This document shows positions 6,954-53,584 of a DNA stretch of 64,000 nt, piece by piece; position 1 is the first letter of the stretch; each line of letters starts with the position of its first letter. The translations under genes were made by a program, and so were the position numbers. Below the pieces are notes generated by a model that was not told where the DNA came from, searched no databases, and saw only the letters and a program-made list of their open reading frames with translations. Location: contig CALXES010000002.1 in the NCBI GenBank assembly GCA_944387385.1, forward strand, positions 42,136 through 106,135, given 5' to 3'. The stretch comes from an uncultured Clostridia bacterium (GTDB lineage: Bacteria; Bacillota; Clostridia; TANB77; CAG-465).

Positions 6954-7442
6954 TTATTCTTGAGAATTTACTTGTTGTTCTTGCTCTGGTTGTTTATCTT
7001 CTTTTTTATCTGATACAATTTTACTAAGTTTGCTATTTATATCAGATGTATTTCTACATGTAATTATTGCAAGCAACATAAACTCATAGCATACTCTTAA
7101 CAATATATTTCCTACGATTAATAGTAATAAAGCTGATATAATATTTACAGCAATTAGTCCTAAAGAATATAAAGTAATAAATATAGCAATTACTAGATAT
7201 AAAATTTTTAAAATTGTTTCAACAATCATATTTTTAAATGTTAATGTATTGTATAACCATCCTAAAAATCCAGTCCATTTTCCATCGTTCTTTTTACTTA
7301 AAAATGTAAAGTATAAAGCTATTCCTCCAGCAACTGCAATTACTAAAGCAATAATTGACCAAATCCCTAAAGTCTCTAAAGAGCTTGAAGCTTTTGTAAG
7401 ACTACTTAAGCTGTTTGATGAATATAAACTTGATGTACCCAT
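6954..7442 (-). CDS. hypothetical integral membrane protein with Ser-rich N-terminus and acidic/Gln-rich C-tail
   Basis: Three or four hydrophobic helices; no family motif recognized. Confidence 0.45.
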   Translation of the reverse strand: MGTSSLYSSNSLSSLTKASSSLETLGIWSIIALVIAVAGGIALYFTFLSKKNDGKWTGFLGWLYNTLTFKNMIVETILKILYLVIAIFITLYSLGLIAVNIISALLLLIVGNILLRVCYEFMLLAIITCRNTSDINSKLSKIVSDKKEDKQPEQEQQVNSQE

Positions 7443-7482
7443 AAAATCCCCTCCTTATCTAACATTACCACATTTTTCTTAA

Positions 7483-8163
7483 TTATTCAAGACACAAGTT
7501 TAAATTGTCATATGGTATTTCAACTTGAATTATTCCTGCAGCATATGGTGCTACAGTACATGGATTAAAATATATAATCATATAATTATCAGTAATTATA
7601 TAATTAGAAAAGGTATTAATATCCTTTTTTAATCCTTCATCAATCCATTTATCATTAGAATATTCTATAATTTTTTCGTTTGATTTTAAACTTTCTTTAC
7701 ATTTTTCAAATAATATATCTACAATATTATCTTGTAAATCACTTAATAATATAATTTTATCTTCTCTATATACAATTGTAAATACCTCATCTAAATCATG
7801 AGTTATACCGACATTACTTTTAACATTAAACTTAAATGAAGTATAATTTTTATATTCAAAAGTATCAAAAGAAATTGTAAGCTCTTTTTTATCTGTTATA
7901 TAATTTGTACTTTCAAAGTTTTCTTTATATTCTTCAATTCTATTATATATTTGAGCATCAATACTTTCAAAACCTGTCACAGGATAAAATATATTAATAC
8001 TATGTTTATCATTATCTTCAACTATACTTTCAATAGTATATTTATCTACATTATTCACAACATCTTTTACTTGAATAACTTCATCTTTTTGACTTGATAC
8101 AATTTTAGAAGAAAAAATCATAACCAAACATAAAAATAGCGCTAGTAATTGTTTATGCTTCAT
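7483..8163 (-). CDS. hypothetical secreted protein (RsiV/PdaC-like DUF3298/DUF4163-type fold suspected)
   Basis: Signal peptide (LALFLCLVMIFSSKIVSS); C-terminal YFNPCTVAPYAAG segment. Confidence 0.45.
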   Translation of the reverse strand: MKHKQLLALFLCLVMIFSSKIVSSQKDEVIQVKDVVNNVDKYTIESIVEDNDKHSINIFYPVTGFESIDAQIYNRIEEYKENFESTNYITDKKELTISFDTFEYKNYTSFKFNVKSNVGITHDLDEVFTIVYREDKIILLSDLQDNIVDILFEKCKESLKSNEKIIEYSNDKWIDEGLKKDINTFSNYIITDNYMIIYFNPCTVAPYAAGIIQVEIPYDNLNLCLE

Positions 8164-40543: not shown

Positions 40544-41170
40544 TTACTTTACACTTTTTCTAACTCTAACAATTGATTTTTTAGCTCCTGGAATTGAACC
40601 TTTTACTAAAATAACGTTTTTGTCAGCATCAACTTTAACAACATTTAAATTTAAAATTGTAGATGTTTTACTTCCCATGTGTCCTGGTAATTTTTTACCT
40701 TTAAAAACTCTACCTGGTGTTGTTGTAGATCCCATTGAACCTGGTCTTCTATGATACATAGAACCATGTCCCATAGGTCCTCTGTGTTGTCCATGTCTTT
40801 TAATAACACCTTGGAAACCTTTACCTTTAGATGTTCCTTGAACATCAACACTGTCTTCTGTTGTAAATGTGTCAACAGTGATTTTACTTCCGATTTCATA
40901 ATCATCCACATTTTCAACTTTTATTTCTCTTAGGTATTTTTGAACATCAACACCTGCTTTTGCAAATACTCCCTTGTGAGGTTTGTTTGCATTTTTTTCT
41001 TTAATTTCTCCGAAGCTTACTACAATTGCGTTATATCCATCTTTGTCAGCAGTTTTTTTACCAACTACTGTTAATGGTTTAACTTCGATTGCTGTTACTG
41101 GTATTGCAACTCCTTTTTCATCGAAAATTTGAGTCATACCAACTTTTGTTCCGTAAATTTCTTTTACCAT
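40544..41170 (-). CDS. rplC: 50S ribosomal protein L3
   Basis: 208 aa, operon position. Confidence 0.95.
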
Positions 41171-41278
41171 TTTGTTTTTCCTCCCTTAAAATAAACTTTA
41201 ACTTCAACCAAATTTTAATATCAGGGTTTGTCATTGCCTAATTGTTTTAGGATGACCTATTAAAATTTTAAGAAGCTA

Positions 41279-41596
41279 TTATAATTTAACTTCGATGTCT
41301 ACACCAGCTGGCATATCAATTGACATTAATGCATCAACTGTAGCTTGATTTGGTGATAATACATCAATTACTCTTTTGTGAGTTCTCATTTCAAATTGTT
41401 CTCTAGAATCTTTATGTTTGTGTGGAGAACGTAAAATTGTAATGATTTCTTTTTCAGTAGGTAGTGGAATTGGTCCTGATACTTCAGATCCAGTCTTTCT
41501 AGCTACTTCAACAATTTTTGCTGCAGCTTGTTCAAGTACAACATGATCATAAGCTTTAAGTCTTATTCTCATTTTTTTGCTTTGTTCTTTTGACAT
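41279..41596 (-). CDS. rpsJ: 30S ribosomal protein S10
   Basis: [10 protein letters not shown]...; RBS AAAGGAGTG. Confidence 0.95.
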
Positions 41597-41812
41597 ATGT
41601 AAAACACTCCTTTTCTATAGTTTGCCGGTTTGACAAGTTTTACACCACCCCGTGTGTTTCATATTTTACATATATTAAAACCAAATTCTACTAATGTAGC
41701 AATTTGGCAAATACACGTTAATCTATACTTGCCGCCCGATTTAAAATCAGACATGCTCCATAGAAGTTCCCTACCTCGCTGGGTAGCCACATTCTACTTC
41801 AACGCAAATCAA
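41597..41812 (-). promoter_or_regulatory. about 215-nt structured 5' leader of the S10 operon (candidate autoregulatory r-protein leader)
   Basis: Between mapped promoter and rpsJ RBS; locally GC-enriched; nested hairpins in transcript sense (CUACC-CAGCGA-GGUAG; GCCAAAUUGCUAC-AUUA-GUAGAAUUUGGU; ACAC-ACGGGGUG-GUGU). Confidence 0.4.
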
Positions 41813-41819
41813 CATCAAT

Positions 41820-41848
41820 ATTATACACGAGTGTTTTAAAAAAAGCAA
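41820..41848 (-). promoter_or_regulatory. sigma-A-type promoter of the S10 operon (TTGCTT-17-TATAAT)
   Basis: On minus strand: TTGCTT (41848-41843), exact 17-nt spacer, TATAAT (41825-41820) preceded by GTG. Confidence 0.55.
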
Positions 41849-41920
41849 GTATTTTTAGTAAAATTATGTAAAAAGATTAAAAGTAAACTTTATTTTAATT
41901 ATTTACTACAATTTAAATAA

Positions 41921-41975
41921 AAAAGAACAAAAAAATACTCCTCAAATTTTCAACACTTGGGGAGTATTTTTATTT
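41921..41975. terminator. bidirectional rho-independent terminator closing the accessory operon
   Basis: ATACTCC(TC)-loop-(GG)GGAGTAT hairpin flanked by AAAAAGAACAAAAAAA and TTTTTATTTT. Confidence 0.55.
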
Positions 41976-41977
41976 TA

Positions 41978-42949
41978 CTATCTAGTTTTGCTTAAAGACA
42001 ATTCTCTATCAATTTCTGATTGTAGCTCATTAAGCTGTGAATTATATTCCTCTTTAAGTCCTTCATCCAATACAAGTTCATCAATATTTCTTCTTGCGGC
42101 TCTAATTCTATTAAAATATGCATATGGATTTGATAGTATTTCTTCATGTGTTCTACTTCTTTCTCTTTCAAGAGCTTCTATACTTCCTTCTACATCTAAA
42201 CCTTGTTCAGATTTTATACTAGTTGAAAATAGTAGTTCAGGCTCTCCAATCTTTTTGCCTCTACCATATATGTTTATACTATCACAAATTCCTCTTTGAG
42301 CAAATTCTCTTAATTCTCCAATAAATGGAGTATACATTCTATCATGGTCTGCTTTAGTTACCCTTCTTGGATCAAAACCATTTCTTATCAAATCAATGTC
42401 TCTTTCTATACAACACAAAAAACTCTCACTTCCATCAATTGCAATAATATTTATATCTATGTCATAACCGCCATCTTTAAATTGAGACAATTCTTTATAA
42501 TCTGCTTCTCCTCTGTGCATAACCTTTTCTTTTACAACATTTAATTTATTATCTATTACTGTTTTATGTACAATCTCATTACCAGGCTTAACAAATTTTC
42601 TTGTTGCTTTATAAAAATCATCAGGAGAAAGTTTTAATAAATCTTCATAGTGTCTATGAAAAGTAGCCAACTTATCTGCATCTAACTCTACGACACATTC
42701 ACCATTTTTACCATATTTTTCATCTCTAATATATTTTCTTAATGTTGTTTTTCCAGATCCAGCTTGTCCTACTAAATACGAAATTGTAGGATGTTGAGAA
42801 GAAAAATCCTTCATACACTTAGCATCCGGTTTTTGCTCTTTTGCCTCTATTAATAATTGAGTAAAGAAATTACTTATACCTTGTTTAAATTCTTCATCTG
42901 TTAAATCATATTTATCATAATTCATTTTTTCTACCATCCTTTTAATCAT
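41978..42949 (-). CDS. zeta-toxin-family P-loop kinase-like protein with C-terminal coiled-coil extension
   Basis: Walker A GQAGSGKTT about 60 aa from N-terminus as in zeta/PezT; 323 aa; start overlaps upstream 56-aa ORF (ATGATTAA). Confidence 0.55.
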   Translation of the reverse strand: MIKRMVEKMNYDKYDLTDEEFKQGISNFFTQLLIEAKEQKPDAKCMKDFSSQHPTISYLVGQAGSGKTTLRKYIRDEKYGKNGECVVELDADKLATFHRHYEDLLKLSPDDFYKATRKFVKPGNEIVHKTVIDNKLNVVKEKVMHRGEADYKELSQFKDGGYDIDINIIAIDGSESFLCCIERDIDLIRNGFDPRRVTKADHDRMYTPFIGELREFAQRGICDSINIYGRGKKIGEPELLFSTSIKSEQGLDVEGSIEALERERSRTHEEILSNPYAYFNRIRAARRNIDELVLDEGLKEEYNSQLNELQSEIDRELSLSKTR

Positions 42950-43112
42950 ATATTTCTTTTATCATTTTTTCTTTAGTATTCATAAAATCTTTAACTTTTT
43001 CTTTAAGTTCTTCATCATTTAATTTTCCACTTTTAATACACTTAGCAACATTAAATTGATACATATATTCTATAATTGCTATCTCATTTATCTTATTACT
43101 AAATTCATTCAT
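42950..43112 (-). CDS. small ORF (56 aa, MNEFSNKINEIAIIEYMYQFNVAKCIKSGKLNDEELKEKVKDFMNTKEKMIKEIYD) translationally coupled to the zeta-like kinase; antitoxin-like position
   Basis: ATG at 43112-43110 with RBS AGGAGAAAC; stop overlaps the kinase start codon; missing from the ORF track, whose shortest listed ORF is 60 aa. Confidence 0.35.
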
Positions 43113-43122
43113 ATTGTTTCTC

Positions 43123-43659
43123 CTATTTTATTATATACTCCCACCCAGGTTGCCACGCTTTAGTTTTTCTCCAATCATTTTTATTTGCATCTTCCCAAGA
43201 GATATTTTTAGTTAATACTTCAAAAGCAAGCTGTGGCGCTCTGTGTGCAACAATTCCAATTGTTTTACCTTCATAATTATTTTTTAAAAAAGTTATAAAA
43301 TCCTTTATTCTATTTTCAACATCTTTTAATGATTCACCATTTGGAAATGGATTATCAACATGTTCTTCGTATACAACTAAAGACTTATCTTCTCCATCCA
43401 AATCCCCGTAATTACATTCTCTTAGTCTTTTATCCTGTATATGTTCAACATTAGGAAAAGCTAAGTTTGCAGAATCAATAGCTCTTACCAAATCTGATGT
43501 GAATATAACGTCAAAATGAGTATCTTTTCTTAATCTTCCCAAATTAATAGCTCTTTCTCTTCCCAAATCTGTTAACTCAGCTTGCTTCCAACCACTACAT
43601 TTTCCAGAAGCATTATCAGTTGTTGTTCCATGAACAAAATAAATAACTTTTGTCTCCAT
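43123..43659 (-). CDS. histidine phosphatase family protein (phosphoglycerate-mutase-like), noncanonical VHG in place of RHG (start placed at METKVIYF)
   Basis: VIYFVHGTTTDN...GWKQAELTDLGRERA...DVIFTSDLVRAIDSA pattern of His_Phos_1; ORF-track N-extension overlaps the upstream gene. Confidence 0.6.
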   Translation of the reverse strand: METKVIYFVHGTTTDNASGKCSGWKQAELTDLGRERAINLGRLRKDTHFDVIFTSDLVRAIDSANLAFPNVEHIQDKRLRECNYGDLDGEDKSLVVYEEHVDNPFPNGESLKDVENRIKDFITFLKNNYEGKTIGIVAHRAPQLAFEVLTKNISWEDANKNDWRKTKAWQPGWEYIIK

Positions 43660-43678
43660 ACCTACATCATCCCTTCCT

Positions 43679-44890
43679 TTATATTTCTTTTTCATACGTT
43701 TTCTTAAATTTACGTTGAAATTCCATTCTCTTATCAAACTCTTCTTGCGAAATCTCCCCTTCTCCTCTATCAATTTTTACTAAAGGATAATCTGGAAAAT
43801 TCATTATACTTGCTCCTCCAATCTTTGTAAAAAGTCTAGGAGTAACATTTAAAAACACATCATTCTGTTTGTAATCTGCATTCGGATCAATATACTTATT
43901 TGAAAAAATTCCAACAGAATATGCAAGCCATCTTAGAGTAATAAATGTATCCCTTAGCTCAGGATTTTTACTAAGTTCTTGAAATCTCTCTGGTGTTATA
44001 GAATCAAGCCTTTTAGATAGAGAAATTAATGAAGCTTTTACATCATCCTTCATCTTAGACTTGTCTATATTTTGAGCTATAACGTCTTGTGGTAACAATA
44101 TATGTCTTGTTCCTTCAGGTGGCACAGTATTTTTCCCTGTAAAAGCCATTAATATTTCTGCATATTTTTGCTCTAACCTTAAATGCATAGTTTTTAAAAC
44201 TTTTGTAAAGTTTGGATCTTGTAAAAATTGCCATCCTTTTTTGATTCTATATATAGATGAATATTCAATGTCTTGATCTCCACAAGTTAAATTTACTGGT
44301 TCTAAGTATTCTCTTAATTCATCAGTATCTAACGTCTCTCTAATTAGCGCTTGATTATATTCAAACATAGGATCAACAACTGATCGATAATAATATGGAG
44401 ATACTTTATCTTTATCAATTTCAGTTATTTTATCCATTGTTTCTTCTTTCCATGAATTAAGATGCAAATGAAATGGTTTTTTAGACATTCCACTAGTTCT
44501 ATCAGTTGTAAATTCATCATAATTAAATACTAAATATGGATAAGCATTACTTAAACCAAATTGATCAATTGTATCTTGACTTGTTAAAAAATCAATATAA
44601 TTATAGCCCATTTGAAAAACATATCTTGCTGCGTCATCAGACAAAGATGTAATTGAGCTCTTACATACAGAATCTGTTGATTGTAACATCATTTCATAAT
44701 CTGAATGTGGCTTAAATTTAGGTGCAAGAGTTATATAATCTGTTGCATCTGCACTCTTTATCTTATGTTCGCTGATTATTCCATTAAAAGGGATTTTTTC
44801 ACATTTGTTTTTTAAGTAAAAAGGTGTTTTAAACATCTCTTTATCAATTCCTGGAATTTTTAAGTGATATACTTTATAATTTTTGTCCAT
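43679..44890 (-). CDS. hypothetical 403-aa protein, no recognizable family
   Basis: Open frame in operon; contains KPFHLHLNSW (H-phi-H-phi-N, HIT-like) but otherwise unassignable. Confidence 0.5.
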   Translation of the reverse strand: MDKNYKVYHLKIPGIDKEMFKTPFYLKNKCEKIPFNGIISEHKIKSADATDYITLAPKFKPHSDYEMMLQSTDSVCKSSITSLSDDAARYVFQMGYNYIDFLTSQDTIDQFGLSNAYPYLVFNYDEFTTDRTSGMSKKPFHLHLNSWKEETMDKITEIDKDKVSPYYYRSVVDPMFEYNQALIRETLDTDELREYLEPVNLTCGDQDIEYSSIYRIKKGWQFLQDPNFTKVLKTMHLRLEQKYAEILMAFTGKNTVPPEGTRHILLPQDVIAQNIDKSKMKDDVKASLISLSKRLDSITPERFQELSKNPELRDTFITLRWLAYSVGIFSNKYIDPNADYKQNDVFLNVTPRLFTKIGGASIMNFPDYPLVKIDRGEGEISQEEFDKRMEFQRKFKKTYEKEI

Positions 44891-44928
44891 ATTATTCTAC
44901 CATTCCTTTCTACATTTATTACTATATT

Positions 44929-47229
44929 TTAAGTTGTAATTGGTCTACATTGTATTAGATATAAAGTATCATTTTCACATGCCCACTCGACATCAACATC
45001 GCAATTATAATAGTCTTCTAATTTCTTTCCGATTTCACCTATTTTAGTTATATTATCTATTGGTATACCATCCTGATTTATTTGATCTGTTATCTCAAGT
45101 GTTTCCTGATCAACAAAAAATCTATCAGGTATTACTCTATTGTCTACAAGCTTTGATGCCACGCCCTTGCAACACTCTATTATTATACTATCTCTATTAT
45201 TAGTTACAGGATCTTTGGTAAACATTACACCAGCATAATCTGCATTAATCATTCTTTGTATTACTATTCCACCAAATAGATTATCTGAATCTTCATCCTG
45301 ATATTTTTCAAGCCCAAATCCTAATAAAGATTTCCAGCACTTCCTTATGCTTTTTATTAAAAAATCTGATGTAGAGCAAAATAGCTCTGTAACATATTGT
45401 CCTGCAAAAGATTTGTTTTCCTTGTCTTCATTAGATGAACTACTTCTTACAGCATATGTATTATTAGAAAAATCTAGTATGTCTTCAAATATAGATGACG
45501 GTATCTCAACTTTATCTATTATATCTAAAATTTCATCTTTATACTTATTTAAGTCAGTACCACATTTCATATATTCATCTAATTGATTTGATTCTTTTAA
45601 AATAGCTTTAAAGAACTTCTTACCTAAAAAGTATGCTTCTGGAATATTTAAGCCTTGTCTTTTCATTAAAGATAAATTATAAGCCTTGTTACCTACTTCG
45701 TTCATGTCTACATCCTCATCAAATAGGTAAATTCCTTCATATAATTTATTATTGATTTTTTGACTTTCCTTTTCTTCTAACAATCTAATCGTTCCATTAG
45801 TCGCATCCACTTCAATTAAATCACCATTTTTTAATATATTTGTTATTCCTTTAAAAGCAATTATACATGGTTTCTTTAGTTCTCTACTTATAACTGAAGC
45901 ATGACTTAATATTCCTCCCTCTTCTGTTACTATAGCTTTTGATTTTACAATTGCATTCATAAAATCAAAATCTGTTCCATAAGTTACTAGAATTTCTCCT
46001 TCTTTTAATTTATTGCTTTCTTCAAAAGTCAAACAAATTCTAGCTTTTCCTGTAACCTTACCAGAAGATGCACACACACCCTTTTTATTTTTAAGTACAC
46101 TTACATCATCTTCATTTATTTTTAAATTATTATAGTATTCTTCTCTTGACTCCATTCCACTATAAATTAGTGATACATTTGATATATATACTCCTTCTTT
46201 TCTTTTTTCCACTTCTTCCTTATCTAACTTCTCATTTAATACCAACAAATTATAAAAATCGTCCATTATATAAAATTTAAAGTCTTGATTTAATTCTGGA
46301 AATCTATTTTTTATTTCATCAAGTATTGTATTTCTATACCTAACGCTTTTTCCTAATAGTGCTTTTTTTCTATCTCTCATAATTCCAAGTTTTGCTGCAA
46401 GATCAAATAACTCAGATAATTGAGAATTATTTAATTTTTTATAAACAGATTGTTTTTGAGTAACTATTCTATTAGGATAAGTTTCTATTTCGTCTATTTT
46501 ACTTTTTATTTCATCCTTACTTAAGTTTTTAAGCTTATTATAACGCTCAACAACTACACTCCTTGAAAGTGGTTTACTTCCGTAACCAATAGTTATATAA
46601 TCATATTCTTTTAAGTGATCATCAATTAACTTATCTATATCAAGAGATTCTGCATTATATAAGGCTTTAAGAAAAGCTAATTCTTCTTTTATAACTGCTG
46701 TATTATCTTCTAAAGAATATAATGTAGTTACCTCATCAGCATTAATATATTGTAAAGGATTTAAATCATTTATTGCCTTTTGTAATCCCAGTTCAACTGG
46801 AGCTAGATTTATATAGTATATTTGATTTAAAGTTATTTGATACCAATTAAATAATATTTCATATAACTCAGCATTACTTAATTTATTTAAGTCGTTTTTT
46901 TGAAGTTTTTCTAAAAAATCATCTAATAGTGTTTCTCTTCTGTTATAATACCAATAACACTTTTCTATAATATTGGGATTGCTATACTTTTGTGGATTTT
47001 TAAATTGATTAGATATATTAAATAATGCGTTTTCCCAGTCTTTTTGTGGAGTATATGACCACAATTTATTATCTTGATAATAAAGACACACATTTTTAAA
47101 CCTAAACCAGTTTATATCAGAACTATACTGATCATATAAGTCATAAATAAATTGCACCGATAACATGGTATCGACATTTCTGTAGTTAATTTGTTTCCAA
47201 TTTTTAATTTTATTTGTACATAAATACAT
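44929..47229 (-). CDS. PEP-utilizing-enzyme-family phosphotransferase with reversed domain order (unknown N-domain, phosphohistidine swivel domain, C-terminal PPDK_N-like nucleotide-binding domain)
   Basis: Swivel-domain motif GGILSHASVISRELKKPCI (res about 420-440); C-terminal third resembles the PEP synthase N-terminal ATP-binding domain; RBS AGGAGG. Confidence 0.65.
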   Translation of the reverse strand: MYLCTNKIKNWKQINYRNVDTMLSVQFIYDLYDQYSSDINWFRFKNVCLYYQDNKLWSYTPQKDWENALFNISNQFKNPQKYSNPNIIEKCYWYYNRRETLLDDFLEKLQKNDLNKLSNAELYEILFNWYQITLNQIYYINLAPVELGLQKAINDLNPLQYINADEVTTLYSLEDNTAVIKEELAFLKALYNAESLDIDKLIDDHLKEYDYITIGYGSKPLSRSVVVERYNKLKNLSKDEIKSKIDEIETYPNRIVTQKQSVYKKLNNSQLSELFDLAAKLGIMRDRKKALLGKSVRYRNTILDEIKNRFPELNQDFKFYIMDDFYNLLVLNEKLDKEEVEKRKEGVYISNVSLIYSGMESREEYYNNLKINEDDVSVLKNKKGVCASSGKVTGKARICLTFEESNKLKEGEILVTYGTDFDFMNAIVKSKAIVTEEGGILSHASVISRELKKPCIIAFKGITNILKNGDLIEVDATNGTIRLLEEKESQKINNKLYEGIYLFDEDVDMNEVGNKAYNLSLMKRQGLNIPEAYFLGKKFFKAILKESNQLDEYMKCGTDLNKYKDEILDIIDKVEIPSSIFEDILDFSNNTYAVRSSSSNEDKENKSFAGQYVTELFCSTSDFLIKSIRKCWKSLLGFGLEKYQDEDSDNLFGGIVIQRMINADYAGVMFTKDPVTNNRDSIIIECCKGVASKLVDNRVIPDRFFVDQETLEITDQINQDGIPIDNITKIGEIGKKLEDYYNCDVDVEWACENDTLYLIQCRPITT

Positions 47230-47245
47230 TAATATTTCCTCCTCT

Positions 47246-47986
47246 CTAATTAATATATACTTGCTTTATGTATTCAATAAACTTATTATAGTTTTCATCT
47301 TTATCCCTTGGATGTTTTAGGGGATTTTTTACCTTTTTATATAAGTTATTTTTACCCATCAAATGAATATAATCTCCTAATTTAGCAGCCTCTTCTATAT
47401 AATGTGTAGATAATATAGAAGTAAATTTTTCTGTTGCAAATTCATCTAGAAAAATTTTATGGATGTTTTCTTTTGAAATAAAATCCAAAGCACAAAAAGG
47501 CTCATCAAGTAATATTATTTTAGGATTAATTACTATACTTTTAGCCAAGGCAACCTTTTGCTTTAAACCAACAGACAATTCATGAGGATAAAAATTTCTA
47601 ATATCATATAAATCATATCTTATTAAAATTTCTTTTAATTCCTTATCATTAATATCTTTTTTAATACTATCAAGAGCAAATTTAATGTTTTGTTTTACAC
47701 TTAGCCATGGTAATAAATTATTTTCCTGTAATACCATTGTAAGTGGTATATTACTACTTTTAATGTATGTGTCATCAAAAACTATATTACCGCTATCATA
47801 TTCTTCTATTCCCGCTATCACTTTTAAAAGAGAACTCTTTCCACATCCGGACACACCTAATAAACAATGAACTTTTCCTCTTTCAAATTTTATATCAAAA
47901 TCATTAAATACTTTCTTATAATTTTTATTACCAATTTTATAATTTTTTACTAGATTTTCTACTTTTATTGCATATTCTTCTTTCAT
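47246..47986 (-). CDS. ABC transporter ATP-binding protein (NitT/TauT family)
   Basis: Walker A GVSGCGKSS, signature LSVGLKQK, Walker B ILLDEP. Confidence 0.85.
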   Translation of the reverse strand: MKEEYAIKVENLVKNYKIGNKNYKKVFNDFDIKFERGKVHCLLGVSGCGKSSLLKVIAGIEEYDSGNIVFDDTYIKSSNIPLTMVLQENNLLPWLSVKQNIKFALDSIKKDINDKELKEILIRYDLYDIRNFYPHELSVGLKQKVALAKSIVINPKIILLDEPFCALDFISKENIHKIFLDEFATEKFTSILSTHYIEEAAKLGDYIHLMGKNNLYKKVKNPLKHPRDKDENYNKFIEYIKQVYIN

Positions 47987-47992
47987 ATAGAT

Positions 47993-48634
47993 TTAAGCTC
48001 TCCTTACCCAAAACAGAACTTTTTTAGATATTTTCTCTATTATAAATGAAATTAAAGCTCCTAGTAATCCCATAAATAATATTCCTATAAAAACCTCTTC
48101 ATAATTTAATAAAGTATAAGCTTTCCATGTATAGTATCCTAATCCTTCTTTTCCACTGATCATTTCTGCCATAATTACACTTGCCCAAGAACCACTTATT
48201 CCAAGCATTAATGATGTAAATATACCTGGCATTATTGCTGGAAGTAATATTTTAAAAAATCTATCTTTAAAATTTAACTTATATAACCTAGAAATTATCA
48301 AATAATCTTGTGGAATACTTAAAAACGATCTATATATATTTAAAAACATTGGAAAAAAAGCACCAATAAAAGTTATACACAAAATGCTTGTATCTATCGT
48401 ATTGCACAGTATAATTGTAATTGGCACCCATCCTGCATTTGGGATAGGTCGTAGTAACTCTAAAATTGGATATAATATCTTTCTTAAAGGCTTAAATTCA
48501 TAAATAATTAAAGCTAGTACTAAAGATGAAAAAAATGCTAAACTAAAACCAATTAAAACATTCTTTAGAGATATTAAAATATTAATATATAAATCGTAAC
48601 TTGTTATTTCATTTATAAACACTCTCAAATCCAT
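47993..48634 (-). CDS. ABC transporter permease (NitT/TauT family)
   Basis: 213 aa, five or six TM helices, 6 nt from ATPase gene. Confidence 0.75.
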   Translation of the reverse strand: MDLRVFINEITSYDLYINILISLKNVLIGFSLAFFSSLVLALIIYEFKPLRKILYPILELLRPIPNAGWVPITIILCNTIDTSILCITFIGAFFPMFLNIYRSFLSIPQDYLIISRLYKLNFKDRFFKILLPAIMPGIFTSLMLGISGSWASVIMAEMISGKEGLGYYTWKAYTLLNYEEVFIGILFMGLLGALISFIIEKISKKVLFWVRRA

Positions 48635-48656
48635 TTTGTTACCTTCTTTTTATTAA

Positions 48657-49649
48657 CTAATTATATATATACTTTTCAATATCAAACTCTTTAATTTGCT
48701 CTAAAGATACTAAAAAATTCAACTTATCATTTAAGGCTTCAATATCTTCTTCATTTATATTTGAATTCCATTCAATAGCATTAATTTCGTCAAATACTAC
48801 ATCATATGAGAATCCACTTTCTTTTTCCATGATTTTTGCTGCTTCTTCTTTATTATTAATAATAAAATCATGAGCTTCTTTTAATGACTCAATAAAAGCT
48901 TGTACTAACTTTTCATCTTTTTCTTTTAAATTATTATTTATAATAACACCTGCCAAATAATCTACTTGTGATTCTTCTCCATCTACAATAACTCTTGTAT
49001 CTATCTCTTTTTGCAAATATTTAGGATATGGCTCCCATATTGCAAAAGCATCTGTTTTATTAGTACTTAATAATTGTATTGCCATTGAAACATCTTGATG
49101 TACAATTTCAACATCATTTAATAGATTATATTTTTCAAGTATTTTCATTAGCATATAATGAGCACTTGAGCCTATAGGTACTGAGACTGTTTTCCCTTTT
49201 AAATCATAAACACTATTTATATTACTATCTTTTGATGCTATAATACTTTGATTTTTTCCATTTTTTCCCGTTCCATCTAAAGCAATCAAGCTAGCATCAT
49301 ATTCACTTAGACTATCCGCTTTATACATATTCAATAACAAAGGCATATCTCCCATAAAACCAATATCTATTTTATTAGAAATCATACTAGTATTAATAAT
49401 AGACCCAGAAATTTCGTCATGCCAAACTATCCTAACTTTCTTATCTGGATATAGTTCTTGCACTTTTTTCTCATAAATTTCTAGGTCTTTTATTATTAGT
49501 GCTCCCCAAGTCTGGGATGTCACACTTTGATATCCTATATTAATTTCAAGCGTATTTTTCCTATTAACTGCAATAACCGCAATAAGGGCTATAAATAAAA
49601 TAGCTGTTAATATAAATATACCTTTTTTACTAAATATCATTTTATTCAT
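48657..49649 (-). CDS. ABC transporter substrate-binding protein, NMT1/THI5-SsuA/TauA family
   Basis: N-terminal anchor helix, then periplasmic-binding fold typical of sulfonate/nitrate/pyrimidine-precursor binders. Confidence 0.75.
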   Translation of the reverse strand: MNKMIFSKKGIFILTAILFIALIAVIAVNRKNTLEINIGYQSVTSQTWGALIIKDLEIYEKKVQELYPDKKVRIVWHDEISGSIINTSMISNKIDIGFMGDMPLLLNMYKADSLSEYDASLIALDGTGKNGKNQSIIASKDSNINSVYDLKGKTVSVPIGSSAHYMLMKILEKYNLLNDVEIVHQDVSMAIQLLSTNKTDAFAIWEPYPKYLQKEIDTRVIVDGEESQVDYLAGVIINNNLKEKDEKLVQAFIESLKEAHDFIINNKEEAAKIMEKESGFSYDVVFDEINAIEWNSNINEEDIEALNDKLNFLVSLEQIKEFDIEKYIYN

Positions 49650-49849
49650 TTTCGTCCATCCTTAATTTTAAAATTCATTAATTCTAAAATATTATTATGG
49701 TGCAAATTATAACATCTTTATATGAGTTTTTCAATATAAATTTTAATTTTTTACGCAAATTGTTTGCAAAATTTGTCTTAATAGTTTTTTATGGATAAAA
49801 TTCAATATAAAAATTTCTTTATTATTATTTTTTAACTTCGTATTTTTAA

Positions 49850-49878
49850 TTGAAACTTTTTTTAGTTTGTAGTATCAT
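49850..49878 (+). promoter_or_regulatory. candidate sigma-A promoter for the thyX-like operon (TTGAAA-17-TATCAT)
   Basis: TTGAAA 49850-49855, 17-nt spacer, TATCAT 49873-49878; about 30 nt upstream of RBS GGAGG. Confidence 0.4.
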
Positions 49879-49909
49879 ATTAATAGAGTTTTTTTGGAGG
49901 TATGATAAT

Positions 49910-50566
49910 ATGATTAAGGTAGAAAATTTAGAAGTTCTAAATTTTGAAGGTGCATTAAGAGGTATGCGAAATCCTTTAGAATCATGGGACAAAAGTGATA
50001 GTTATTATGATAAAGACACAGGAAAATATATAATAGGACCAAAAGATTTAGCACTTGCTTTAAAATTAACAAAAGCAGGTTCTGATCATTCTAAATTTTT
50101 AAGGCAAATATTCGTATCAATGGATATTACAGCTCCAATGTCATGGTGGTGGGATTTTGATACATATAAAGTTGCTACAGTAAGAAATAGTACAAGTAGG
50201 ATGCACAAGCTTGGAAGTAGAATATTAACATTTGATGATTTTAGTGTTGATGACGAAAAAGGAAATACAAATATAACACCATTTAGAAAATACGTTTTAG
50301 AAGATTTAAACAGAAGAATCAAAGAATATCAGCAATTAAAAAATGATGGCAAAATGGAAGAAGCAATGGCGCTATGGAGAGAAATTGTTTTTGATTCTCC
50401 TCAAAGTTATAATTTTAAATCAACATGGACTGGTAATTATGAAATAATGAGAAATGTTTATAGAGCAAGAAGAAATCATAAACAAAGAGAATTTAGAGAT
50501 TTCTGTAAAATTATAGAAAATGAATTTCCATATAGCGAATTAATAACAACCCCAAGAGAAGGATAG
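49910..50566 (+). CDS. ThyX-fold (flavin-dependent thymidylate synthase-like) protein lacking the RHR/dUMP-binding arginines (start placed at ATG 49910; ORF-track start is an upstream TTG)
   Basis: Aligns with Thermotoga ThyX in core segments (HSKFLRQIFVSMDITAPMSWWW; WTGNYEIMRNVYRAR) from memory, but RHR is replaced by TYK and the NAR arginine by NYE. Confidence 0.5.
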   Translation: MIKVENLEVLNFEGALRGMRNPLESWDKSDSYYDKDTGKYIIGPKDLALALKLTKAGSDHSKFLRQIFVSMDITAPMSWWWDFDTYKVATVRNSTSRMHKLGSRILTFDDFSVDDEKGNTNITPFRKYVLEDLNRRIKEYQQLKNDGKMEEAMALWREIVFDSPQSYNFKSTWTGNYEIMRNVYRARRNHKQREFRDFCKIIENEFPYSELITTPREG

Positions 50567-50576
50567 GTGAGAAAAT

Positions 50577-51152
50577 ATGGCAAATTCAAAACTAATAGTT
50601 GTTGAGGGGCCACAAGGAGTCGGAAAAACAACTGTAACTGATTATATTAGACATGGTCTAAAATATACTAATTTATATAGATTATGTGGTACATCTGATA
50701 GTACACCAACGGGAAAAAAGAAAGCAACTGATATGTACTGGGACTTAATTGAATATATAAAAAAAATGGAAAACAAAAGTATAAACTTGGTTTTTGATAG
50801 AACATTTTTTACTGAAGAAATATATAGTAGACTAAAATTTAAAGAATATGATTTTTCTGATGAATATGAAAAGCTACTTGATAACTTTAGCAAATTAGAT
50901 TTTGATATATACTATATAACACTTTTTTTAGAGAATACAGAGCTATTTAAAAAAAGATTAGTAAGAGATGATAAAGCTATTACTGAATATGCTAAATTTA
51001 ATATAGAAAGTAGTAAAAAACAACAAAAAGAATATTTAAAGATGGCAGATGAAATTTCATCAAAATATCCAAATATAAAAGTATTCAAAGTGTCTAATGA
51101 TACCGATGAACAAGAGTTAAAATTAAAAATAAAAAACATACTTAACTTTTAA
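50577..51152 (+). CDS. P-loop (d)NMP/deoxynucleoside kinase-like protein (thymidylate-kinase fold)
   Basis: IVVEGPQGVGKTT P-loop at N-terminus, FDRTFF (DRY-like) motif, LVRDDK lid-like segment; 191 aa. Confidence 0.55.
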   Translation: MANSKLIVVEGPQGVGKTTVTDYIRHGLKYTNLYRLCGTSDSTPTGKKKATDMYWDLIEYIKKMENKSINLVFDRTFFTEEIYSRLKFKEYDFSDEYEKLLDNFSKLDFDIYYITLFLENTELFKKRLVRDDKAITEYAKFNIESSKKQQKEYLKMADEISSKYPNIKVFKVSNDTDEQELKLKIKNILNF

Positions 51153-51187
51153 TATCATACCATCTTAGTATTACATGGAGGTTAAAT

Positions 51188-52468
51188 ATGACAAACGAAG
51201 AAATAATATCATATATTTATAAAGAAAGAAAAAGTAATAAAGAAAAAAAAGATAATAGCAGAATGTTAAGTTTTATGAACGAACTTAATAATCCACAAAA
51301 CAATTTAAAATTTATACATATAGCTGGTACAAATGGCAAAGGTTCAACTACTACAATGCTTGCAAATGTATTAAAAAACAGTGGTTATAAAGTTGGAAAG
51401 TTTATTTCTCCGTACGTAATTTCTTTTAACGAAAGAATACAAATAAACAATGAATTTATATCAGATGATGAATTATCAAAATATATTAAACAAATAGACC
51501 CTATTATTTTAAAAATGGAGCAAAATGGAGATGCACCAAACGGTTTTGAAATAATAACTGCAATTGCTTTTATGTACTTTAATGATAAAAAATGTGACTT
51601 TGTATGTTTAGAAACTGGTTTAGGAGGAAGATTAGACCCAACTAACGTAATAACTACAACAATAATGTCTATAATAACACTTATAGATTATGATCACACA
51701 AAATTTTTAGGAAATACTTTAGAGGAAATAGCTTCTGAAAAATGTGGAATTATAAAAAAAGGAAAGGTAACTGTTACTTATCCTAAACAAAAGAAAAATG
51801 TTTTAGATACAATTAGAAGCTTTTGCTTAAAAGAAAATAATAAACTATATATTCCAAGTTTAAAACTATTAGATATTATAAAATGTAATCATAACATTAA
51901 CTATTTTAGTTATAAAGGAACATATTACAAACTTAACCTTATAGGAAAACATCAAATATATAATGCTTTAATGGTAATTTTAGCATCTAATATTATGATT
52001 AATCTTGGGTATAAAATATCCTTTTCCGCAATAAACAGTGGAATATCAGATACAAGTTTTCCAGCAAGATTAGAAAAATTTGATAATAATCCTACTATCT
52101 ATATAGATGGCTCTCATAATGTTGCTGGAGCTGAAGCACTTAAAGATTTTTTATACGAATACAAAGGAAAGAAAAACTATGCTATAATGTCTTTTACAGA
52201 AGGAAAAGATTATTCAAAATTTATTGAAGAAATAGGTTCATATTTTCAAGAACTAATATTTGTTGAATACAAAAATAAATATAAAAAAGCGGAAAATATA
52301 AAAAATCTAGAGAAAGTAGCATCAAAATTAGGTATAAAATCTAAATCATTTGATTCAATTACCAAAGCATATGAATATGTGAAAAGTCAAGAAAATTCTG
52401 ATTTATTGTTGGTCACAGGTTCATTATATCTTGCATCTGATTTTAGAAATATGTTAACAGAAGAATAG
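51188..52468 (+). CDS. folC: folylpolyglutamate synthase/dihydrofolate synthase (Mur ligase family)
   Basis: HIAGTNGKGST P-loop, 426 aa. Confidence 0.9.
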   Translation: MTNEEIISYIYKERKSNKEKKDNSRMLSFMNELNNPQNNLKFIHIAGTNGKGSTTTMLANVLKNSGYKVGKFISPYVISFNERIQINNEFISDDELSKYIKQIDPIILKMEQNGDAPNGFEIITAIAFMYFNDKKCDFVCLETGLGGRLDPTNVITTTIMSIITLIDYDHTKFLGNTLEEIASEKCGIIKKGKVTVTYPKQKKNVLDTIRSFCLKENNKLYIPSLKLLDIIKCNHNINYFSYKGTYYKLNLIGKHQIYNALMVILASNIMINLGYKISFSAINSGISDTSFPARLEKFDNNPTIYIDGSHNVAGAEALKDFLYEYKGKKNYAIMSFTEGKDYSKFIEEIGSYFQELIFVEYKNKYKKAENIKNLEKVASKLGIKSKSFDSITKAYEYVKSQENSDLLLVTGSLYLASDFRNMLTEE

Positions 52469-52566
52469 TTTTTTATTATTTTTAAACAAATAACTTGATT
52501 TTTATTTTCTTTTATGCTAAAATGTTTAAGTAAATTGTTAACGTATACATAAGGAGGTGCAAGTTA

Positions 52567-52821
52567 ATGCCAAATATAAAATCTGCTAAAAAAAGAGTTA
52601 AAATTATTGAAACTAAAACTCTACAAAACAAAGCTACAAAAAAAGCATATAAAGAAGCAATAAAAGCTTTTGAAGCTGCTGTTAAAGAAAATGCAAAAAA
52701 TAAAGAAGAATTATATAATGAAGCTATTAGTAAAATAGATAAAGCTTGGTCTAAAGGTGTATTAGCAAAAAATACTGCATCTAGAAAAAAATCAAGTTTA
52801 GCTAAAATGCTTAATAAATAG
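52567..52821 (+). CDS. rpsT: 30S ribosomal protein S20
   Basis: [18 protein letters not shown]-terminus; RBS AAGGAGGTG. Confidence 0.95.
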
Positions 52822-52835
52822 TTTATAAATAAATT

Positions 52836-52862
52836 TCACCAGCATAGCTGGTGTTTTTTTGT
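52836..52862 (+). terminator. rho-independent terminator after rpsT
   Basis: CACCAGC-ATA-GCTGGTG hairpin followed by TTTTTTT. Confidence 0.7.
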
Positions 52863-52948
52863 CATTTTTTTAGTTAACATTTAATTTCTCATAAGTTGTA
52901 TTTTTTATATTACTATGATAAAATTTAAAGTATTATAAAGGAGTGTAT

Positions 52949-53584
52949 ATGGAATATTTATTTACGTTTTTAGAGGGAATAGCAAGCTTTATTTCGCCTT
53001 GTCTTCTTCCGATGATACCAATATATATATCATATTTTATTGGAGAAGAAGAAAAAAACAGCACCAAAAAAATAATTAATGCTTTAGGATTTGTAATAGG
53101 GTTTACATTAGTATTTTTAATCCTTTCCATATTTGCAAGTAGTCTAGGAATACTAATTAGTAATAATATAAAATATATAAAAATAGCTTTTGGAATAATA
53201 ATTATATTTTTAGGTTTAAATTATATGGAAATCATAAAGTTAAAGTTTCTTAATAAATATAAAGTATTTAATGCAGACAAAAAAAACTTGAATTTTTTTA
53301 AAGCTTTAATTTTTGGAGTTGTATTCTCAGTTAGTTGGACTCCATGCATCGGAACATTTTTAAGTTCAGCTTTACTTCTTGTAGCTAAACATCAAGATAT
53401 GTTAAAGGGTATTTTACTTATGCTTATCTATTCTATAGGACTTGGAATACCTTTTATTATTTCAGTTGTTTTAATAGAAAAGTTAAAACAGGCTTTTGAT
53501 ATAATAAAGAAAAATTATAATATTATAAAAAAAGTATCAGGAGCTATTTTAATTATTATAGGAATTTACACTATATTTTTTTAA
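52949..53584 (+). CDS. ccdA: cytochrome c-type biogenesis / thiol-disulfide transporter CcdA (DsbD beta domain)
   Basis: Cys in TM1 (SPCLLPMIPIY) and TM4 (TPCIGTFL); six TM helices. Confidence 0.8.
   Translation: MEYLFTFLEGIASFISPCLLPMIPIYISYFIGEEEKNSTKKIINALGFVIGFTLVFLILSIFASSLGILISNNIKYIKIAFGIIIIFLGLNYMEIIKLKFLNKYKVFNADKKNLNFFKALIFGVVFSVSWTPCIGTFLSSALLLVAKHQDMLKGILLMLIYSIGLGIPFIISVVLIEKLKQAFDIIKKNYNIIKKVSGAILIIIGIYTIFF

Follow-up and report, generated by a model that had tools for sequence, protein, structure and literature searches.

We have analyzed a row of eight genes on the minus strand of a 64,000-nucleotide (nt) stretch of DNA from an uncultured Clostridia bacterium (GenBank assembly GCA_944387385.1, contig CALXES010000002.1). 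This whole stretch is called the window here, and the genes occupy its positions 41978 to 49649. Very probably, two separate units, both read from the same strand, make up the locus. The first consists of an ABC importer, a 766-amino-acid (aa) dikinase, a 403-aa enzyme of predicted HIT/GalT-like fold and a histidine phosphatase with an unusual VHG motif; tentatively, we read it as a small-molecule phosphoryl-processing module. The second consists of a 56-aa open reading frame (ORF) and a zeta-like kinase. As judged from sequence comparisons this is a portable, self-contained module, probably an independent epsilon/zeta-like toxin–antitoxin pair that ends the transcription unit. A first-pass annotation had taken the eight genes for a single conserved pathway. 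This view does not hold, because the 56-aa/zeta pair occurs alone elsewhere and a sister species, which is the closest relative (locus L017), has no ABC genes at this site.

The conserved core of the locus is the dikinase together with the 403-aa enzyme. Wherever a related locus has enough flanking sequence, homologues of the two stand side by side (for example in L007/L021, L009, L010/L013, L011, L014 and L017-L023), including one from the cultured bacterium Anaerocolumna aminovalerica (L010/L013). They are also adjacent, at about 25% identity, in the high-GC contig L034; the high-GC subset of our context survey comprises seven short loci. The metagenome-assembled genomes (MAGs) that carry related loci bear differing labels (Bacilli, Mollicutes, Clostridia or Firmicutes).

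By homology, the 766-aa protein (44929 to 47229) is a single-chain small-molecule dikinase of the Rph/HpeHI type, with the order putative substrate domain, swivel domain with His443, ATP-grasp domain. Pfam places the PEP-utilizers domain (PF00391) at residues 409-479, followed by PPDK_N, the nucleotide-binding ATP-grasp domain, at residues 510-716. The helical, presumed substrate domain spans residues 1-350 (nt 46180-47229), the swivel domain residues 376-485 (nt 45775-46104, with the catalytic His443 at 45901-45903) and the ATP-grasp domain residues 500-766 (nt 44929-45732). In an AlphaFold model (mean predicted local distance difference test, pLDDT, of 82) the three domains are joined by low-confidence linkers, and the N-terminal domain (1-350) is predicted to be helical. 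The swivel motif GGILSHASVISRELKKPCI is present, its histidine being H443, and the stretch T435-E-E-G-G-I-L-S-H443 fits the T/SxxGGxxxH consensus described for HpeH, Rph and phosphoenolpyruvate (PEP) synthase (PMC12167813). Among the aligned homologues E436, E437, G438, G439, L441, S442 and H443 are invariant, and T435 and I440 are conserved in at least 90%. The ATP-grasp residues are likewise invariant across 23 homologues. A profile of the family matches the structures of the Listeria rifampin phosphotransferase with an E-value of 1e-68, and the C-terminal part (507-765) aligns to Rph residues 27-327.

The first-pass annotation had noted that the swivel domain precedes PPDK_N, and the Pfam matches confirm this. 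A canonical, colinear PpsA/PPDK can be rejected from the domain order and the absence of the PEP/pyruvate domain. Rifampin phosphotransferase proper is rejected as well, since the order is reversed and the protein reaches 181 bits against the Rph equivalog model NF041857, which has a cutoff of 999. The reversed order is that of two-component dikinase genes fused into one chain, and the mechanism is not new. HpeHI, CreHI and PpsAB each have the ATP-grasp on one component and the substrate and swivel domains together on another (PMC12167813). The 120 best homologues include 77 proteins with fused N-domain, swivel and ATP-grasp, 22 with N-domain and swivel only and 18 with the canonical order of grasp then swivel. 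Split dikinases with the ATP-grasp gene immediately downstream are found in L015 and L037. Fusion of the components of a known type of dikinase accounts for the permuted order. In one protein (P0144) the N-domain and swivel are joined to an ABC ATPase domain that replaces the ATP-grasp; it comes from one contig and is possibly chimeric.

The 403-aa protein (43679 to 44890) had been described in the first-pass annotation as belonging to no recognizable family. This is correct at the level of sequence families, as Pfam, NCBIfam, PADLOC and PHROGs hold no match. Ten distant family members have no Pfam or NCBIfam match either, and this holds for HIT, GalP_UDP_transf, DUF4931 and similar profiles. 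The fold, on the other hand, is recognizable. An AlphaFold model of high confidence (pLDDT 90; predicted template modelling score, pTM, 0.91) shows the alpha+beta fold of HIT proteins, and in a Foldseek search of the PDB with this model galactose-1-phosphate uridylyltransferases rank first. In the fold comparison the model scored 10.5 with CWF19L, 9.3 with the ADP-glucose phosphorylase 1Z84, 9.1 with GalT, 8.6 with DUF4931, 8.2 with Apa2 and 7.8 with Cdh, and lower (4.6-7.0) with classical HIT proteins. A sequence-level tie of the family to HIT proteins or to known structures was rejected: hhalign against a canonical HIT protein gave a probability of 0.5% and the PDB profile and sequence search with the family was empty. 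The evidence that remains is at the level of the fold.

The family itself is sizeable. A word-indexed search found 73 relatives, all of them derived from metagenomes or MAGs, and 164 representative clusters (counted at 50% identity) came out of an exhaustive search with a profile, 134 of them below 1e-10 and most with lengths around 400-460 aa. The conserved residues are K58, H62, D130-R131, D173, R262 and G358, together with the pattern KxFH141-L-H143-L-N145-x-W on a beta-strand. The HxHxN motif at its center (H141-L-H143-L-N145, nt 44456-44470) lies on the strand 141-147 and has N, not H or Q, at its third position. Both histidines are kept in at least 90% of 60 diverse family members. We take KxFHLHLNxW to resemble the H-x-H-x-Q-x-W of GalT, which serves as a lead and not as a test. 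Three 277-aa proteins (P0071-P0073) unite residues 252-342 of the 403-aa protein with the VHG phosphatase and are perhaps a deletion variant.

The phosphatase gene occupies positions 43123 to 43659 of an ORF that extends to 43773. An ATG at 43695 is an alternative start and would overlap the 403-aa gene by 17 nt, while the ATG at 43659 leaves a gap of 19 nt. All orthologues begin with M-x-x-K-(I/L)-(I/M)-Y-(F/Y)-V-H-G, and the start at 43659 (METKV...) is therefore favored. The protein belongs to branch 1 of the histidine-phosphatase superfamily (His_Phos_1, PF00300, E 5e-27), and its best solved match is PhoE (1EBB, E 1e-11). The VHG motif had been noticed before, and the alignment supports it: its valine (motif at nt 43627-43635) stands opposite the arginine of the PhoE sequence TRHGET, and in eight of eight cluster-linked orthologues V replaces the R of RHG while the histidine is retained. 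The other catalytic residues, including the second histidine, arginine and glutamate, are kept, with RLRE and AHR aligning to RLRE and THG of PhoE. GpmA-type paralogues that adjoin the cluster in L019 and L023 retain RHG. The VHG phosphatase accompanies the core pair in the window, L011, L017, L019, L020 and L022-L024, and is missing from many other clusters, for instance L007, L013 and L014.

The importer is encoded by genes for a substrate-binding protein (SBP) with an N-terminal membrane anchor (48657 to 49649, 330 aa), a permease (47993 to 48634, 213 aa) and an ATPase (47246 to 47986, 246 aa). Its earlier assignment to the NitT/TauT type is backed by Pfam and TIGRFAM-type matches of all three proteins, which stand together in one operon. 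The SBP matches NMT1, OpuAC and Phosphonate-bd in Pfam and the SsuA family TIGR01728 with E 2e-37, and its best solved matches are SsuA (2X26) and TauA. The permease matches BPD_transp_1 and TIGR01183 (ntrB, E 4e-38), as well as SsuC and TauC; the ATPase matches ABC_tran, with NitT/TauT-type proteins as best hits. The type of SBP suggests that the ligand would be small and polar, possibly sulfonate- or amine-bearing, and the presence of an importer suggests an exogenous precursor. NitT/TauT systems recur with the core pair in distant lineages (L007, L013, L014, L019-L023, L033 and L037), and both the high-GC locus L033 and the low-GC locus L037 carry the transporter beside the core. The sister species L017 (92% identity) lacks all three ABC genes, and only about 340 nt (7305-7647) separate its thyX-like gene from the dikinase gene.

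The second unit consists of the 56-aa ORF (42942 to 43112), a putative antitoxin gene, and the gene for a zeta/PezT-like P-loop kinase of 323 aa (41978 to 42949), a putative toxin. The two genes overlap by 8 nt. That the kinase belongs to the zeta family and carries a Walker A motif had been proposed before and agrees with its Pfam match (Zeta_toxin, PF06414, E 1e-25) and with matches of about 2e-10 to zeta (1GVN) and PezT (2P5T). Its Walker A sequence GQAGSGKTT aligns with the zeta P-loop GQPGSGKTS, and LDAD aligns with IDND of zeta, which we take to be the region of the catalytic aspartate (and of the substrate arginines). The 56-aa protein has no family match in Pfam, NCBIfam or PHROGs, and no homology to epsilon or PezA was found there. 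In unrelated neighborhoods, kinase homologues at 40-48% identity follow a homologous ORF of 65-68 aa and overlap it by 8 nt as well; the small proteins can be aligned at 32% identity. These pairs adjoin integrase, Fic and RhuM genes and lack the other genes of the cluster. The kinase thus has a cognate small gene and the pair is independent of context, as in epsilon/zeta systems. Of the clusters with the core pair, none outside the genus of the window carries the 56-aa ORF and the zeta-like gene. Since it occurs alone elsewhere, it is probably a toxin–antitoxin module.

The eight genes are tightly spaced. The gaps along the row measure 22, 6, 16, 38 and 10 nt besides the 403-aa/phosphatase junction and the 8-nt overlap, and the ORFs, their sizes and the one-strand spacing agree with the first-pass annotation. 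The same annotation had placed a terminator behind the zeta-like gene. Here we find an intrinsic terminator at 41922 to 41971, whose hairpin (41931-41971, followed by a U-run) folds with -16.4 kcal/mol and z = -3.7; none of 200 shuffled sequences folds equally well. A generic terminator scanner missed this site. Internal terminators or promoters that might split the set had been named as a possible objection; the scan listed no terminator-like site on the minus strand within the eight genes, and promoter-like matches occur in the region at chance level (63 found, 63.5 expected). Given this frequency, the sigma-70-like sequence upstream of the SBP gene (TTGAAA-17-TATAAT with TG, 49706 to 49734, minus strand), although the best minus-strand match with a score of 11/12, is a candidate promoter only. 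The eight-gene set is found identical on contigs of several independent metagenome samples and is therefore not an assembly artefact.

How could the first unit work? We tentatively propose that a compound is imported and phosphorylated, and that the new phosphate is then the site of nucleotidylation or of some other processing. The SsuA/TauA-like importer would bring in a small polar compound X. For the dikinase, homology and the conserved catalytic residues indicate that it moves the beta-phosphate of ATP to His443 of the swivel domain, with release of AMP and Pi, and then passes it to X in the helical N-terminal domain, in the manner of rifampin phosphotransferase and HpeHI. In the 403-aa enzyme, fold and motif point to His143 of HxHxN as the residue that might form a nucleotidyl-histidine intermediate. 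The enzyme would then make or exchange a nucleotidyl link on the phosphate (X-P → NMP-P-X), like enzymes of the GalT or Ap4A-phosphorylase type. The VHG phosphatase may strip phosphate from the product, from a by-product or from unused X-P. Such a route could activate X for transfer, yield a bioactive nucleotide-like compound or use the phosphate as a transient handle. Two relatives support the logic of a kinase followed by a nucleotidyltransferase (and then a phosphatase). In P0171 a homologous permuted dikinase is fused to NTP_transferase, in a locus that lacks a 403-like gene and encodes a HAD phosphatase downstream; in L015 an NTP_transferase gene lies directly upstream and His_Phos is fused to the swivel protein. 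PPDK-like kinases that feed nucleotidyl or glycosyl transfer are known from Cj1418/Cj1416 and TalE/TalC (PMC6482885).

Several points weigh against this proposal. The HIT assignment is based on a predicted structure, and the sequence-profile and PDB searches found nothing; the HxHxN motif is a variant of HxHxH/Q, and His143 is a candidate for the nucleophile position. The role given to the phosphatase is a guess, and loss of the RHG arginine could mean different chemistry. The importer is missing in L017, so import is not obligatory, and it is unusual for a biosynthetic cluster to contain an SBP-dependent importer. The zeta pair is likely co-transcribed with the first unit, with a 10-nt gap and no terminator in between, which leaves room for a functional link. 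Finally, a generic phosphoryl-processing model leaves the FusB-like gene of the relatives unexplained.

This gene encodes a protein of about 230 aa and lies between the 403-aa gene and the phosphatase gene in L011 (11193-11867), L019 (11202-11903), L020 (11181-11873), L022 (8299-9006), L023 (11203-11907) and L024 (814-1605). In L007/L021 (11204-11914) it stands before a gene for a canonical HIT protein, which these loci encode in addition. Its profile matches FusB/Far1 over the full length (E 1.2e-11 to FusB, 4ADN), with both FusB Pfam domains matched and the treble-clef zinc-finger cysteines kept. L037 has an ORF with weaker likeness to FusB (44-637), directly upstream of its split dikinase. 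Apparent stops in a neighbor gene of L007 had raised the possibility of an alternative genetic code, which was rejected, as they stem from a coordinate discrepancy of the gene call.

The wider gene contexts lend the 403-aa/dikinase family a biosynthetic flavor. Other clusters contain glycosyltransferases, ABC-2 and MFS exporters, radical-SAM enzymes, a carrier protein and a carbamoyltransferase, as well as condensation domains of non-ribosomal peptide synthetases (NRPS) and ATP-grasp enzymes of the L-amino-acid-ligase type. The split form in L015 (6949-10743) runs from the NTP_transferase gene over a 671-aa protein with N-domain, swivel and His_Phos to a separate 247-aa PPDK_N protein, and upstream of it lie a B12-binding radical-SAM gene and lipid genes of the CDP-alcohol/CarS type. 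The low-GC locus L037 (44-11575) looks like a small natural-product cluster. Besides its FusB-like ORF and split dikinase it encodes a 403-aa protein that weakly resembles the AlaRS core, two ATP-grasp enzymes, one of them of the L-amino-acid-ligase type, and a HIT-like family member of only 304 aa, and for transport the NitT/TauT system and an MFS exporter.

Might the locus be a resistance or immunity operon? The dikinase would then inactivate an antibiotic by phosphorylation, the HIT-like enzyme and the phosphatase would process the drug or a nucleotide-type toxin, and in relatives FusB would protect EF-G. This would parallel macrolide operons of the msr-mph type, in which genes for target protection and for a phosphotransferase are paired. 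Among solved structures Rph is the best homologue of the dikinase, and full-length FusB/Far1 genes are present in L007/L021, L011 and L019-L024, with the weaker one in L037. The canonical HIT protein of L007/L021 fits as well, as HIT hydrolases are known as immunity enzymes against peptide-nucleotide antibiotics (bioRxiv 10.1101/2020.03.04.977132). We nevertheless regard this explanation as unlikely. In the window no FusB-like gene was found by tblastn with six of the FusB-like neighbors (none below E 0.1), and an importer is counter-intuitive in a resistance operon. Rph works without a partner enzyme, whereas the dikinase here is always accompanied by the 403-aa protein, and the distant clusters, with their glycosyltransferases, NRPS condensation domains, amino-acid ligases and exporters, look biosynthetic. 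There was also no PADLOC match and no NCBIfam match at the curated cutoff. A defense system was rejected since PADLOC gave no meaningful matches for the core proteins, and a phage origin of the core since PHROGs had no match for the 403-aa or 56-aa proteins.

We can also imagine, though it is doubtful, that dikinase, HIT-like enzyme and NitT/TauT transporter are the core of a class of clusters that make a phosphorylated, nucleotide-linked antimetabolite, possibly a phosphoramidate, directed against translation elongation or EF-G. The FusB-type protein or HIT hydrolase of the relatives would then confer self-immunity, the VHG phosphatase would be a pro-drug or detoxifying phosphatase, and the window would hold a reduced version in an uncultured gut Firmicute.

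Scavenging offers another explanation of the locus. In a route of the "phosphorylate, transform, dephosphorylate" kind, as in the Hpe, Cre or phenylphosphate pathways, the dikinase would put a transient phosphate on an imported sulfonate-like or phenolic compound, the 403-aa enzyme would transform it, and the VHG phosphatase would take the phosphate off again. Importer, kinase and phosphatase in a single operon suit salvage, the SBP resembles sulfonate and taurine binders, and the Hpe pathway proceeds by phosphorylation, then carboxylation and dephosphorylation (PMC12167813). However, enzymes of the HIT/GalT fold work on nucleotide-phosphate bonds and not on carbon skeletons. The related clusters hold glycosyltransferases, NRPS parts, ligases and exporters in place of catabolic enzymes, the phosphatase is missing from many of them (L007, L013, L014) and the FusB-like neighbor is not accounted for. 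We regard scavenging as improbable.

The eight-gene pathway of the first-pass annotation, in which the zeta-like kinase would add a further phosphate to an intermediate as Cj1415 does after Cj1418 and Cj1416 in Campylobacter phosphoramidate synthesis, could draw on the 10-nt gap between the phosphatase gene and the 56-aa ORF, the single terminator after the zeta gene, the same five-gene end in L017 and a weak adenylyl-sulfate-kinase-like match of the kinase, but is very unlikely given that the pair is confined to the window's genus among all clusters, stands isolated next to integrase, Fic and RhuM genes elsewhere and has the toxins zeta and PezT as closest solved kinase relatives.

As to the chromosomal site, the cluster lies at the same place in the sister species L017, where the genes from dikinase to zeta stand between a thyX-like gene and rpsJ, and in different contexts and sites in other lineages. 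The first-pass annotation had suggested an insertion where str/tuf genes normally lie upstream of rpsJ. Insertion of the cluster at the S10 site is plausible; the repeat search found no convincing flanking direct or inverted repeats and the composition profile no GC content distinct from that of the neighbors, so neither gave a sign of a mobile element. No EF-Tu/EF-G G1 motif exists anywhere in the window; fusA or tuf beside the cluster is therefore rejected, and S10 does not adjoin a str operon at this site. Downstream of the cluster lies a long S10-operon leader (41597-41850, minus strand) with a promoter-like TTGCTT-17-TATAAT at about 41818-41846, found by eye. Rfam has no family at the gathering threshold in 41000-53000, so that a riboswitch or leader RNA at the locus was rejected and any ribosomal-protein leader is not a curated one. 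On the other side three plus-strand genes diverge from the cluster. The first (49850-50566) encodes a 238-aa, probably 218-aa, protein with no Pfam match, a weak thyX match (E 0.005) and a full-length match to phrog_6721 ("unknown function", E 2e-63). It is followed by genes for a thymidylate-kinase-like P-loop protein (50577-51152, phrog_761, E 4e-12) and for folC (51188-52468). This trio is conserved in L001-L006 and L017 and, from its sequence matches, may be a phage-type thymidylate/folate unit.

How does the locus compare with known systems? Each of the proteins can be placed in a known superfamily, the permutation of the dikinase being explained by fusion, and the literature searched held no direct precedent for a cluster of a dikinase with a HIT or FusB protein. 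What appears to be undescribed there is the 403-aa HIT-like family, its invariable pairing with the dikinase and frequent pairing with a NitT/TauT importer, and the conserved VHG phosphatase and FusB-like neighbors.

The closest known relative of the dikinase, by sequence and structure, is Rph (Listeria 5HV1/5FBS), which shares the ATP-grasp and swivel phospho-histidine domains, and presumably the helical substrate domain and the chemistry ATP + X → AMP + Pi + X-P. In Rph the order is grasp, substrate, swivel, whereas it is substrate, swivel, grasp here. Unlike Rph, the 766-aa protein is always paired with the 403-aa enzyme, and there is no sign that it acts on rifamycins. HpeHI, CreHI and the phenylphosphate synthase PpsAB (PMC12167813) have the same arrangement as the 766-aa protein, in which it is fused, and as the split relatives L015 and L037. 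However, the N-domain has no detectable sequence similarity to the characterized phenol-binding components, and the gene context lacks a carboxylase or P450. With Cj1418, which acts with the cytidylyltransferase Cj1416 and the kinase Cj1415, and with TalE (PMC6482885) the locus shares the logic of a small-molecule dikinase followed by nucleotidyl or glycosyl transfer, and relatives of the 766-aa protein are fused or adjacent to NTP_transferase. There is no orthology, though. The candidate for nucleotidyl transfer here has a HIT/GalT fold and is no NTP_transferase, and the locus has no glutamine amidotransferase-like hydrolase or methyltransferase. As the window has no NTP_transferase or amidotransferase-like gene, its likeness to the Campylobacter O-methyl phosphoramidate (MeOPN) pathway (Cj1415-Cj1418) is an analogy in logic.

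The second unit resembles epsilon/zeta and PezAT in its Zeta_toxin kinase with Walker A, its small, translationally coupled upstream ORF and its portability as a pair. It differs in that the 56-aa protein has no detectable similarity to epsilon or PezA and the kinase is extended at its C-terminus by about 70 aa; its toxicity is putative. A tight row of genes on a single strand is thus not necessarily one pathway, the last two genes here being a portable toxin–antitoxin-like pair. The relatives of the cluster encode a full-length homologue of FusB/FusC (Far1) that keeps the treble-clef zinc finger and matches both Pfam domains. Its identity to FusB is low, it is absent from the window and EF-G binding is predicted from sequence. 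The FusB-type gene of the relatives suggests a possible tie to immunity or to antibiotics that act on EF-G, which would bear on gut reservoirs of resistance.

Within the GalT branch of the HIT superfamily (GalT, 1Z84, Apa2, DUF4931, Cdh and CWF19L), the 403-aa protein stands apart by its lack of profile membership and by HxHxN in place of HxHxQ/H. It is larger, with extra helical parts, and its family is unannotated. The pair of this enzyme and the dikinase, with an SBP importer, in uncultured gut MAGs, in Anaerocolumna aminovalerica and in high-GC metagenome contigs points to an unrecognized phosphate-activation chemistry. The 403-aa family would form a branch of its own, new to the HIT/GalT superfamily, with a defined partner in the single-chain small-molecule dikinase.

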